A stretch of DNA of 63,709 bases, the filler included, from Reclinomonas americana ATCC 50394 (Eukaryota), in NCBI GenBank assembly GCA_048213135.1. It is 11 parts of 8 records of this genome, joined end to end, with 100 filler letters (N's around TTAATTAATTAA, not from the genome) between each part and the next. Parts side by side here need not be neighbours in the genome. Positions count along the whole stretch, not along the records: positions 62,487 to 63,709 come from PS015727.1; 10 more parts are not named here. One strand, given 5' to 3'. This document shows, piece after piece, positions 16,137-63,709 of this stretch. Made by a program: the position numbers and the translations under genes. Within the stretch, counting starts at the first letter, position 1. Each line of letters opens with the position of its first letter. The notes under the pieces were generated by a model that saw nothing but the letters and a program-made list of their open reading frames with translations, was not told where the DNA came from and searched no databases.

Positions 16137-18634
16137 TTCAACCTCTTCGAATGCCCCACCTGTCCACCCCACAAGAACCAGCTCGACAATGTGTGGAAAC
16201 TGTACGTGAACAAACTCAATGGCTCCTACTTTTGCCATCGCTGTGGCACCCGTGGCTCGTGGTGGAACTTTAAGCAGCTCTACAACTCTGGCATCTCAAT
16301 CACGGACTGGAAAGGTCTCGTCAGTCGCGCTCGCGCACACACACACACTTGTCGCTTCACTAACCCTCGTTGTTGTCTTCTTGTTGTCAACCACAGGCGC
16401 CACACCCGACGCACAGAAGCCCATTTACCCCGACGAATCCACAGTCTCTCTCTACCCGGCGGCGCTGCAGTCGGTACTTTCCTCCCTCCTTCTCCCTCTC
16501 TCTCCCTCTCTCCTTCCCTCGCCCACCCTTGCTGACACAGAACCCCGACGTACTTCAACGTCTCGCCGACGAGCGCCGAGTGACCGCTCAAACTCTCGAC
16601 TTTTATCGCGTCGGCCTCGCCACCTACTCCTTCATGGACGACAAGGAGCGCAAGTGGGTGGAGCACGAGTGTCTCACCTTCCCGTGGATGGAACGCACGC
16701 GCCGCGGCTCCGACAAGTGGCGCACGATTCGGTTGAAGGTGCGCTCGCTGCTGCGCAAGGCATTCATGCGACTGGATCCGGCGGGCGGATCGTGGGGTCT
16801 CTTTGGGTGGCACACGGTGCCGGACGACGCCACGCAGCTGGTGCTCACCGAGGGCGAATTCGACGCGCTCGCAGTGTACCAGGCGACCGGAATGCCGGCC
16901 GTGTCGCTCCCCAACGGGTGTCGATCGCTGCCGCTCGAGCTCATCAAGCAGCTGGAGCGTTTTGACCGCATCTACTTGTGGATGGACGACGATGTGCCGG
17001 GGCAAGAAGGAGCAGTGCAGTTTGCGCAAAAGGTGAAGTGCGACTGAGAGAGAGAAAGAGTGAGTAGTAGATGTGGTCTCATTCGAGTGCGAGCAGCTGG
17101 GTCTGGAGCGCTGCTTCATTGTGCACGCCAAGGGCGACCAACCGGATGGACCGAAAGATGCTTGTGAGGCGCTGGTGCGCGGTCTCGACTTGTCGGAGCG
17201 GCTTCGTCAGGCGGCTCGCATCCCGCACCAGGCAATTCTCACCTTTGCCGATCTGAAAGCGGTGCGTGATGTGCTGCGGATGGGGAGAGGGGCAGCGAGT
17301 GAGAGAGGCATCGAGCAAGGTGTCGTACTGGTATCGTGTTGCTTTCCGCCTCATTCACCGCGGCATCGCTGCTACAGGACGTGTTGCGGGAGATTCTGAA
17401 TCCGGATCAGGTGGCTGGCGTGCAGAGTATGCATCTGCCGACGTTGAATGCCATTCTCAAGGTAACATTCCCCTCTCTTTACGACGCTGATTGCGTGTCG
17501 AGCAACTCATCCGCCGTCGCGCTCTCGCACAGGGTCACCGAAGTGGCGAACTCACCATTCTGACGGGTCCCACCGGCATCGGCAAGACGACCATTCTCTC
17601 GCAGATGTCGCTCGACTATGCATCGCAGGGTGTACGCACACTGTGGGGATCGTTTGAGATCAAGTTGCGCTGGTGTGCGTTCTGTGCATGATGTGCGTTG
17701 CAGTGTGCTGACACGCGTCCAACAGAAACACTCGACTGGCGCGCACGATGATGACGCAGTTTGCTGCGGAACCACTGGGACCGGCGAACTTTGAGGAGTG
17801 GGCCTCTCGTTTCTCCGAGGTGCCGATGTACTACCTCAAGTTCTTTGGCAGTACCGATGTGGACAAGGTTGGTCGGGCGTGTGATGATCTTGCACTTTGT
17901 TTCTTGCTATCTTTTGCACCCGTCTTCCATTCCCTATCTCTTTCCCATCTCCTCACCCTCCCCCTCCCTCCCCGCAGGTTCTCGACGCCCTCGAGTACGC
18001 GGCCTACGCCTACGACGTGCGCCATGTCGTCATCGACAACATCCAGTTCATGACCAGTGGGCAGGCGTACGGCGCCGACAAGTTCGACATGATGGACCGC
18101 GCCATTGACAAGTTTCGCAATTTTGCCTCCTCCCGCAACGTGCACGTCACGCTGGTGATCCACCCGCGGAAAGTCGACGACGAGGAACGCCTGGGCGTCA
18201 GCTCGGTGTTTGGCACGGCCAAGGCGACACAGGAGGCCGACAATATCATTATCGTGCAGCGAGGCACTGCGTTTAGGTGAGCCTTCCACGCGCTGTTGTC
18301 GCGCCTCTTTCGTGCTCAACACCCTTCGTCGCGCAGATACCTGGAGGTGAAGAAGAATCGCTTCGACGGTGAACTCGGTCGCATTCCGTTCCTCTTCGAC
18401 AAGGCCACGTCGAAGATCTACGAACTGTCGTCAGAGGAGCAGCGACAGCTGGAGGCGCAGTACCAGCAGCAGTTGCAGGAGAGTGGCGAGTCGTCGCCCA
18501 GATCGTCGTCGTCGTCGTCGTCGTCAATGTCGTGGTCGAATCGCTCGTCGGGTGGTCGTGGCACGCGACGCAAGTACGCGTCGTCGCCCGGCAGTGCATC
18601 GCCCGGTGGCGGCGAGGGCACACTAATGACGTGA
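16137..18634 (+). CDS. TWNK: Twinkle mitochondrial primase-helicase (T7 gp4-like), multi-exon
   Basis: Zn motif CPTC...[21 protein letters not shown] and WMDDD, Walker [56 protein letters not shown]. Confidence 0.95.
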
Positions 18635-18733: not shown

Positions 18734-19657
18734 TTACTTGGTGTTCTTCCACTGGAAGTAGCCGGTCACAAACGCACCAAGCATGCCGAGCCAGCCAATG
18801 ACATCGTTCCGCAGACCAATGCCACCGGGAACGCCCCAGTGCACGGCCAGCACCAGATCGGCCGTCATCTTGGCCGACTTCCACCATGTGGCCCGTCGCT
18901 TCGCGCGCACCGTCTCCAGCTCATCGCGCAACGCCGCCACATTCTCCGACGGCGCTGCCGTGACAATCGAACGCTCCAGCTCGCGTTGCCTGGCCGCCGC
19001 CAACCGGTCGCGCAGCAACATGGACGAGATGTCCATGACCAGGTTGACGACCCACAACCACATGGTGGCGAGCTCCACGGGCGTCGACACATGCTCCGGC
19101 ATCGTGCCCGGGCTCATGTAGTTCACCCACAGCGCCATCTCCAGTGGATTGTAGGCAATCATGCTGAGCGCCGATATGTCGTCGCAGCGTGAGGCCACTC
19201 GCAGGCGCCAATCCGACGACTGTCGCTCGGCATTCGGCGACGCCACCACCAGTGCATAGTCGATGCCCATGAAGAAGCGCAGACAGTAGCGCGTCATGGA
19301 GAGACCGCTGCCGACTTTTTGCACGGTGGTCAGAATGTGCTTGGCGCGCTCCGAGTTCGCCGGCATGTGTTGCGAGAGGTGGTAGGCTGTTCACACGAGT
19401 AAGTAAAAAAAAGATGCATTTCCCGCGCGTGCGTGTGTGTCTTGTCAAACTGATGATCAGTGTGTGCGTGTGCATGTGTGTATGTGGAGAGTGTGCGAGA
19501 AGAGACACACACACACATTCGCGTGTGGTGAGACGCAACAGACGATTTTGGAACCGTAGGCCAGAGAGCGATACACCTTGTCGGCTCCCCAAATTCCACT
19601 GAGGAAGCGCGAGAGACGGCCCAGCGTCTGCAGTGCGCTTGAGGTGCTGTCGGACAT
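18734..19657 (-). CDS. PEX11: Peroxisomal biogenesis factor 11 family protein
   Basis: N-terminal GADKVYRSLAYG, LSMTRYCLRFF, YNPLE, C-terminal ADLVLAVHW...IGWLGMLGA...W typical of PEX11; one intron. Confidence 0.8.
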
Positions 19658-52300: not shown

Positions 52301-54171
52301 GCACCGGGCAAGCCAAGCAGTCGCTGGCCAGGGTGCGGCCGGTCAGGGTGCTGGAGCGACAGTGAGCACTCAGTGCATTCACAAGGGGTTCACATTGCAC
52401 GCAACTTAAAAGTTCCGATCGGGCACTGTGTGCACGTCGCAGATCCCGTCACGGCGGCGTACGTGCCGGCCAAGCACGACTGGCAGACACTGATGGAGGT
52501 CGCATTGAGCTGCGCACATCGGGGTGAGGGTGAGACGTGTGTTGCAACAGACGGGGCGCGGCAAGCGCATGCTGTACGCAACCGCTTGACTCGCTGTACC
52601 GAGTGGACAGTTCCTGTTGCCAGCGCGTCAACAAAGGTGAGAAAAAATGTTCATCTCACACACGCACACACAGACGGCTTGCGCAACGAGCACGAGGCCA
52701 ACGAAGTGCCACCAGCGGCGGTTGCATAGGTGCCTGCCGGGCAGCTGATGCATGTCGCCTGACCGGCACCATTGGTGTAGAATCCCTGCGCGCAAGTGGT
52801 GCACGAATATGCGCCTGTGTAGCACGCACGACACGCAGATGAGTTACGTGATGACACTCGGGAAGGAGTTTACGAATAACAGTCGCACCAATGGCAGAAA
52901 TGCTTCCGGCAGCGCAATTGGAGCACTGTGACGTGCAGCAATAGCAATCGAGTGAGTGGATGTTGCGTTAGAATGGATGGGCACACGATCATTCACCGTG
53001 GAGTCACCAGCTGCGGAAAACTGGCCCGCCGGGCACGTTGGTCGGCTGTAGTCAGTCACTACGACACAGTGCGGTGAGTCGCAACGATTTACGATCGTGC
53101 GTTTCTGGTGACAGAGTGAGCGCAACTCCACGTGTCCGAGAGCGACTGGTACTGGTCTTCGCCGCCATGAACCCACACGGTGTTGTTGAACACAAACATG
53201 CCGAAATTGCGACGCACACCAATGGCCGTCGGGTTGCTGATGGATGGTGTGTACCAGCGATTCAACACATTGTCGTACTCGATCGGTGACGCTGCAGGAC
53301 GGACACATCAGTGGCACGAGTGAGAGTAACAAGAGAGGGGAGTTGCGCAACTGAGGTAATTGGGAAACGTCGATCGATAACCGCCGAAAACGAACATGCG
53401 ATTGCCCTGCACCACGGCCTTGTGACTGGCACGACCGGCCGGTGGGCTCGCTGCAACAATATGGATATTGAGAAGCGAATACGCAAGGAAGGGGAACGGA
53501 AACGCATGCACGCAACAGGCATTGTTGATGGTCGTCCATCCGCCGGGAACTGCGCAACACATACTTTAGGCAACCCTCTCTCACACACACACAGAGGACA
53601 ACGGATACGATTCCGCAACTGCAGTAGCTCATCAGGGTAGAGTACACGGTGTAGACGACCGAGGTTGACACCGTGTTACCGCCAAACACATACATGCACG
53701 TGCCGAGCCACACGGCCGAGTGGTAGGCGGTGGCTTGTGGCCCTGCTGCGAGTGAAGTCCACGTCTTGGTCGCTGTGCGCTACAGTGAGTCGCGATCGCA
53801 GCACCAAGCCTGTCACAATATGCGCTTGCTCAACTGAAATCAAACGAGTACAGGTCGCTGAGGAGACTCAGATCGGCAGCTGCGCCACCGTACAGATAGC
53901 CGAGATTGTTGTTCGGATTCAACACAAACGTGGCGCCCTCCCTGATTGGCGGAGTCGAGCCACTCGTCGTGATGGGTCCCACCCAGGGTCCGTTGGCGCC
54001 GGCGGGATTGCCTGCACGATATCACACGCATGAGCGGGTGGCTGGCACGCGAGAGCGAGCAACGACACGCAACGATACTGCCACAGATCGTTCAAATACG
54101 CTGCGCCACTGTAGCCGCCGAAAATGTACATGGTGCCGTCGGGCGCGATCACGGCGCTGTGATCCACTCGA
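49355..54171 (-). CDS. Kelch-repeat + GCC2/GCC3 (ephrin-receptor-like) Cys-rich repeat extracellular protein, with an internal CBM-like beta-sandwich
   Basis: HSAVIAPDGTMYIFGGYSG, HKAVVQGNRMFVFGGY; many CxxCPxGx[YF] repeats; an NGNMLWPEF...WQSLSYD...VLFDDVEI domain; stop at 49355. Confidence 0.8.
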
Positions 54172-62486: not shown

Positions 62487-63300
62487 GCTCCGCCGCCGCC
62501 GCAAACTTCTCGAGGCGCGGCATGATGAAGTGCTGCTCCGACACGCCGACGGCAAACTCCGGCATGTTGACAGTGCCGGCACCCAGCCACAGGCCGATGA
62601 CCCACGCGAGGAGCTCCACAGATGGCGGCTCCGCCGAGGCGACCTCCGGCTCGAAGCAGTCGGCGAGGACGTCCTTCAGGGTCTTGCCGTGCGAGGGGAC
62701 CGGCCAGTTCTCCACGCCCAGGCAGTGGCGCATGTCGAGCGGGATTGCGCTGCGGCGGCCCGCAGCGACGAGGGCCGCATACTTGCGGTACACGTTGAGC
62801 GGCACGAGCCACTCGTAGACGCCCTCCGTCTCACACATCTCGACGGCGCGGTTGTGGGCGCGATGGCGACTGTTGTACGACTCGCAACCGTCGACGATCT
62901 TGAACTGCTCGCCGCACTTCGCATCCCACTGCACCTGCTTCTCGATTTCGTACGGGCGGTCTGCGCCGAGCTCATCGTCGTACTTCAGCGCCCACAGGCG
63001 CGCGCCGTACGAGCCCGTCTCGGCGTCCTCATCGCCCGCCCGCCGAATGCTCGCCAACTTGGGCAGCACGACGACCAGGATGTGCCGCTCGTTGCAGACA
63101 AAGCCGTCACCGTCAAAGAGGCTGTCCTCGAGCTTGTTGTGGAGAGGGCGCACGCGGAACATGCGCGAGCGGCCCTTGTGGACGTGCGCAACATTGCACA
63201 CGCCGCCGCTGCCGCTGAGCACGCGGTTGCCGACGACGATCTCATCCATGCGCCGCACGGACGCGTCGGCCATGCGCACCGGCGTGTCTGGCGAAACGCA
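62487..63300 (-). mobile_element. PRP8 intein (Hint N-terminal region + LAGLIDADG-like endonuclease motif), truncated by the contig end
   Basis: Block [29 protein letters not shown] starts exactly after VVFY; block [10 protein letters not shown]; block [14 protein letters not shown]. Confidence 0.92.
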
Positions 63301-63680
63301 GTAGAAAACGACCGGAGGGAAACGAGACGGCATCTTGGAGTTGAGGCCGATCTTGATACGCGTCTGGATCTTGTTCTCGCACTTGACGAGCAAGTCGAGC
63401 AGCTCCTCCGTGTGGATGACGGCCTCGCGGAAGTACGTCATCAAGCCAATGATGCACGTGTTCCACTTGTTGGCGATCTTGGTGAACGTGGTCGAACCCG
63501 ACGCCATCAGCACCATACGGATGCGGTTCTCGAACTTGCGCAGGCTCCACTCGTCGACACGCAAAAAGGCTTGCGCTGTGCGCTCCTTGGTCGTCTCATT
63601 TTGCAGGTTCCACACACCGTCGCGGTGCGTGAATTCCTCGCTGTGAGCGCGGATCTTGGGCAGCAGGCGCACCTCGAAAC
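62487..63680 (-). CDS. PRP8: Pre-mRNA splicing factor PRP8 (internal exon, partial) interrupted by an intein
   Basis: FEVRLLPK...[13 protein letters not shown]...[27 protein letters not shown]...[24 protein letters not shown]; acceptor CTGAC-polypyrimidine-CAG ends at 63681. Confidence 0.97.
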
Positions 63681-63709
63681 CTGAGAAAGGAAGGGAGGAA
63701 CGAGGTCAG

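Follow-up and report, generated by a model that had tools for sequence, protein, structure and literature searches.

The question raised by this locus is what interrupts the PRP8 gene at the end of a window of 63,709 nucleotides (the whole stretch of DNA analyzed here) from Reclinomonas americana ATCC 50394, at which site it does so, and whether the interrupting element is likely to splice or to move. At a probability of just under nine in ten, we read it as a class 1 cis-splicing intein of the VMA1/PI-SceI type, of which the N-terminal half is present, located at the Prp8-e site of a nuclear PRP8 gene. This reading is carried by what is seen directly at the locus, namely, its site, its open frame, its first cysteine, its block B, and its place in a clade with the site-e intein of Capsaspora.

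The interrupted reading frame

The features discussed below are as follows.

63681 to 63709, minus strand: probable 3' end of a spliceosomal intron, from sequence; Prp8 homology begins directly after it
63301 to 63678, minus strand: Prp8 N-extein piece of 126 amino acids, ending in PPVVFY (Pfam PF10597 and PDB alignments)
63040 to 63300, minus strand: intein N-terminal splicing region with Cys1, block A, and block B (Pfam Hom_end_hint)
62611 to 63039, minus strand: accessory region that separates block B from block C and occupies the position of the PI-SceI DNA-recognition region (alignment and model)
62575 to 62610, minus strand: LAGLIDADG block C, with Ala241 for the catalytic Asp (alignment via P0003 to PI-SceI)
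62487 to 62574, minus strand: first part of the endonuclease domain, truncated where the scaffold stops; blocks D, E, H, F, and G and the C-extein lie beyond
16364 to 18631 (plus strand), 18737 to 19390 (minus strand), and 52393 to 54170 (minus strand): unlinked scaffolds with Toprim and AAA_25 pieces, PEX11, and a Kelch and cysteine-rich repeat gene, respectively (39 frames scanned)

An open frame on the minus strand runs from 63678 to 62488, through Prp8 and on into the insert with no break. Its residues 1 to 126 are Prp8 (Pfam U5_2-snRNA_bdg, PF10597, E = 2e-54), and PDB alignments set them against residues 1192 to 1317 of human and about 1265 to 1389 of yeast Prp8, in keeping with the identity given in the initial annotation of this DNA; the terminal PPVVFY, at 63301, ends at the equivalent of human Y1317. 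Just upstream, a CTGAC branch-point-like motif, a pyrimidine tract, and a CAG that places the exon start at 63680 make the gene look nuclear and intron-bearing, and use of this intron end in splicing is probable from its sequence. The scaffold contributes only 1223 bases to the window, and its end at 62487 cuts the insert. As this end is an artificial join (N44-TTAATTAATTAA-N44), one of 13 in the window, nothing past 62487 is physically linked to it. Elsewhere in the window, the Toprim and AAA_25 pieces could represent a Twinkle-like primase-helicase.

The insert after PPVVFY comprises 271 codons, in frame and with Cys first (codon TGC at 63300), which upholds the initial annotation both in calling an intein at this point and in counting roughly 270 visible residues. 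Its recognition of Hint blocks is borne out as well, with Pfam Hom_end_hint matching insert residues 1 to 87 above the curated cut-off (E = 2.4e-10). Block B reads C69-N70-E-R-H73 and fits the class 1 T/N-x-x-H pattern; across 14 aligned rows H73 is invariant and C1, C69, and N70 are nearly so. As is characteristic of class 1 inteins, the insertion is in frame in a conserved host protein that has homologues without it, and Cys at position 1 is accompanied by Hint block A. That the insert is more than a chance reading frame is supported by the fact that a frame of its length stays open in only 29 of 20,000 base shuffles, by a GC3 of 0.90 (0.87 in the extein), and by its BLAST match to the Capsaspora site-e intein (E = 7e-39, 56% identity over 126 amino acids, with 36% over a further 146).

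A search of sequencing runs listed no RNA run and one DNA run with a small share. A 206-nucleotide contig from this public run, X1, matches 62529 to 62734 with two differences, neither in the Ala241 codon; because X1 may be the source sample, it lends no independent support. No X1 contig bridged the missing end past 62487. The same run, which is of freshwater origin, also yielded a contig from a different organism that aligns with the extein over window positions 63298 to 63413 and then reads PKELGGLGML, an empty allele.

Insertion site and relatives

The insert sits at the catalogued Prp8-e site and not at a new one. Sites e and f were named in Capsaspora by Monier et al. 2013 (PMC3749507), and a 542-amino-acid intein in KJE96844, "Capsaspora_owczarzaki_E", appears with blank extein cells in the supplementary data of Green et al. 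2018 (PMC5784728). That intein occupies residues 1839 to 2380, shares the junction of the window (PPVVFY/C, the slash marking the splice point), and ends in VAHN/TPKELGG. The comparison with catalogued sites thus removes the possibility, left open by the initial annotation, that the site was novel. Equating site e with VFY/ rests on the Capsaspora row of the supplement and on the order of the three Capsaspora inteins. An intein of Anaeramoeba ignava (KAJ5070282, residues 222 to 691) lies at the same junction, and site e is listed for this species in PMC10710043. As to lettering, supplement 2 of PMC5784728 gives the letter E to the Auxenochlorella intein that precedes CWKAN, yet the position of this intein is that of Capsaspora B, and in the text of PMC10710043 the letters b and d appear swapped for Anaeramoeba. 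The initial annotation was right to separate the insert from the fungal site a: the window intein is not inserted at FWEKA/S, which lies 189 residues further downstream (1493 versus 1304 in P0171 numbering).

Site e is mostly empty. Among the 120 extein-search matches listed, 112 run directly into (T/S/C)PKE and are thus empty, 2 carry an intein, 2 are other read-throughs, and 4 are without the motif. Deposited Prp8 proteins of Kickxellomycotina and of environmental origin carry site-e alleles, and many Coemansia, Kickxella, and Dimargaris proteins have more distant ones. Site e also appears occupied in P0099 and P0192 of the glomeromycete Entrophospora (FPCVVFY/CFGENT). The gene models of P0108 (Coemansia mojavensis) and P0110 (Linderina pennispora) read VIFY-CYxxG-xRELGG, and it looks as if annotation has removed a site-e intein from them as a false intron.

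The sequence of the insert leads to the same site as its position. Against 129 inteins from 33 Prp8 proteins, the top four matches are all site-e inteins (188 to 151 bits), whereas the best intein from another site scores 77 bits and the best fungal Prp8-a intein 37. The window intein therefore shares both the insertion residue of Capsaspora intein e and a closer relationship to same-site than to other-site inteins, as Prp8-e membership implies. Prp8-a inteins have the host protein and the class 1 Hint domain in common with it and differ in site. In a tree of 18 rows over the 271 covered columns, from which two Entrophospora rows had been dropped, the window intein groups with the JGI alleles P0095 and P0094 (support 99/98), within a seven-row clade that includes the Capsaspora site-e intein (99/98). 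A tree on 80 splicing-block columns is poorly resolved and does not unite the site-e inteins (4 changes).

Complete site-e alleles measure 453 to 610 amino acids. The two closest, P0095 and P0094, are 60% and 55% identical to the window intein, both have Ser at position +1, and both keep an accessory segment of 85 amino acids; the accessory region of the window intein is about that much shorter. The Capsaspora intein resembles the window intein in the collinear order of blocks A and B, accessory region, and block C (44% identity over 266 aligned residues) and in being without the block C Asp, but it has the roughly 85 residues that the window copy is without. The Anaeramoeba intein has the same short accessory form; it is only 30% identical, with Cys at +1 and Asn in block C.

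With the insert alone, no homologue emerged from 6844 candidates among proteins of 476 to 2000 amino acids, and a scan of metagenome DNA with the single protein confirmed 0 of 115 pattern matches. The same scan with a close alignment confirmed 9 of 184, each of them a generic Hint start outside any Prp8 context. Among the viral contigs searched, 17 loci showed 23 to 39% identity over the first 75 to 97 residues only, none of them in a Prp8 context, and no close viral donor was found.

Fold and state of the endonuclease

A structure model built with the 14-row alignment reached a pLDDT of 77 and a pTM of 0.54 (a single-sequence fold, with a pLDDT of 37, was discarded). The best 11 Foldseek matches to the model are all PI-SceI (E = 1.7e-7 to 3.3e-6), its superposition on PI-SceI domain I gives a Z of 7.2 and an rmsd of 5.6 over 162 residues, and PI-SceI is also the best solved-structure match by sequence (E = 1e-5). 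This best match supports the VMA1-type layout that the initial annotation had proposed, in which an accessory region separates block B from block C. PI-SceI, the VMA1 intein of Saccharomyces, has the same CNxxH block B and the same long accessory region before block C; it differs in its host protein, in being only about 20% identical, and in being an active endonuclease with Asp218. By comparison with the DNA-recognition region of PI-SceI, the accessory region may have a DNA-binding role. An AP2-like fold of residues 79 to 164 was considered as a lead and proved weak, with Z of only 3.4 to 4.1 to AP2 and Toxoplasma mitoribosomal chains, no Pfam AP2 match, and no Atlas match at 0.9.

The catalytic Asp218 of PI-SceI lies at the end of block C. 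In the window, the block C helix is present and reads W-V-I-G236-L-W-L-G-A241-G. Its WVIGLWLG aligns with block C of PI-SceI through allele P0003, whose GLWLGDG aligns to GLWIGDG of PI-SceI and places the window Ala in the column of Asp218 (codon GCC, 62580 to 62578). The LAGLIDADG-like block of the initial annotation is therefore real as a helix, and what had been missed is that it ends in Ala and not in the Asp or Glu of an active LAGLIDADG enzyme. Loss of this residue is common in the group, as only 4 of 17 other alleles, P0095 among them, keep the Asp. The catalytic acidic residues reside in blocks C and E, and PMC8966425 describes an archaeal intein lacking them as inactive. Lacking the catalytic Asp, the window copy has probably lost homing, and a dead endonuclease is, from its sequence, a good deal likelier than a live one.

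Splicing and rival explanations

In class 1 chemistry, Cys1 undergoes an N-to-S shift, the +1 residue attacks, and the terminal Asn cyclizes. With Cys1 and N70-x-x-H73 intact and a C, S, or T after the terminal Asn in all 16 complete alleles of the 271-column tree, the window intein is predicted to splice in cis by the class 1 route. By analogy with standard intein chemistry and the complete alleles, the insert would be translated together with Prp8, Cys1 would make the N-to-S shift with the aid of N70 and H73, a Thr, Ser, or Cys at +1 would attack, and cyclization of a terminal His-Asn would leave Prp8 rejoined as VFY-(T/S/C)-PKELGG. The initial annotation had put Thr at +1, which remains likely given its presence in four of the six clade members, yet is not a fixed property of the site: the two closest alleles have Ser, and 47 complete site-e alleles (a redundant set, mostly Kickxellales) have Cys in 33 cases, Thr in 12, and Ser in 2. 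The equivalent position in 177 empty alleles is Thr in 123, Ser in 28, Cys in 25, and Ala in 1.

It could be argued that the insert leaves at the RNA level, as an intein-derived spliceosomal intron with its donor GT at 63297. A GT does follow Cys1 directly, 25 of the 177 empty alleles have Cys at this position, and an intron and an intein at one Prp8 codon are described for Bathycoccus (PMC3749507). The donor-like YGTTGCGT is, moreover, enriched in the window (25 occurrences against 7.7 expected, a level reached in 0 of 100 shuffles), but the junction CGTTTCGC is not (7 against 6.0). Against it, the insert holds 271 open codons with the GC3 noted above and with conserved splicing residues and is under coding constraint, and no pyrimidine-tract acceptor was found in its visible part, so that we give this explanation scarcely any credence. 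A dead or second copy of PRP8, whether a pseudogene or a fragment of another organism in a mixed assembly, would not need its intein to splice, and both the truncated scaffold of 1223 bases and the loss of the block C Asp are compatible with it. Against such a copy stand an extein that is 81 to 88% identical to its nearest relatives and free of stops, the intact Cys1, N70, and H73, and the agreement in codon use between insert and extein; we consider it very unlikely.

Slightly less probable again is that the intein persists because it acts as a conditional switch that pauses spliceosome assembly through redox or metal sensing at Cys1, comparable to what has been suggested for the Cryptococcus Prp8 intein. 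Such a role was proposed for site a from in vitro inhibition by copper and zinc (PMC6805012), and a splicing domain retained while the endonuclease decays would suit it. The same pattern is, however, what the cycle of a selfish element predicts, and the predominance of empty alleles at site e (112, against 2 with an intein, among the 120 extein matches listed) speaks against such a role as well. For the class 1 intein that we favor, it can be hypothesized that it entered an empty allele by endonuclease homing, later lost the catalytic Asp of block C and probably about 85 amino acids of its accessory region, and is now most likely an immobile passenger, kept because failed splicing would destroy Prp8.

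Host and transfer

The extein is most like amoebozoan and EukProt sequences, with identities of 88% to a EukProt protein, 86% to Thecamoeba, 83% to other amoebozoans and a ciliate, 81% to mammals, and 71% to Capsaspora; in an extein tree of 126 columns, no supported group includes the extein of the window. P0095 and P0094, which carry the two closest inteins, have exteins that share only 72% and 69% identity with it and lie on a long branch, which suggests from sequence comparison a transfer of the intein between distant hosts. It is conceivable, if rather doubtful, that this scaffold belongs to a PRP8 gene holding as many as six inteins, that the host is a non-opisthokont and possibly an amoebozoan, and that the site-e intein reached it horizontally, across eukaryotic supergroups, from an intein lineage also found in Capsaspora and two distant environmental hosts.

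The intein load of Prp8

Seven Prp8 intein sites were counted by Green et al. 2019 (PMC6805012), and the highest number of inteins in one protein is given as five in PMC10710043. In 98 Prp8-like proteins of at least 2400 amino acids, a set chosen by intein-biased searches, we mapped 19 distinct sites, seven of which match published ones (a to f and AKWK/T); one of the other 12 may be site g. Two proteins of this set have nine inteins, one has eight, two have seven, and four have six. The three with nine or eight are from Dimargaris; P0085 (KAJ1984313.1, D. verticillata; 5994 amino acids) and P0087 (KAJ1982965.1, D. xerosporica; 6000 amino acids) carry nine inserts each and P0089 (KAJ1979992.1, D. 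cristalligena; 5502 amino acids) eight, and these inserts start with Cys and end in His-Asn before Cys or Ser. No report of a nine-intein Dimargaris Prp8 was found among the open-access papers listed by our searches.

This comparison suggests that deposited sequences, with 19 sites and nine inteins, hold well more than the counts in print (seven sites plus one, and five inteins per protein). If unpublished, the nine-intein Prp8 would offer a direct test of how an essential protein copes with nine splicing reactions, all of them obligatory. Should the six-intein gene and the transfer across supergroups considered above be real, then Prp8, taken together with the Dimargaris proteins, would be a far larger and more widely exchanged store of inteins than published work shows. 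The window intein itself is a real, well-supported, and ordinary member of the Prp8-e group whose endonuclease has probably decayed. It adds one host to site e, for which Capsaspora and Anaeramoeba were the published carriers found, and it lends support to the idea that inteins pass between distantly related protists and subsequently decay.
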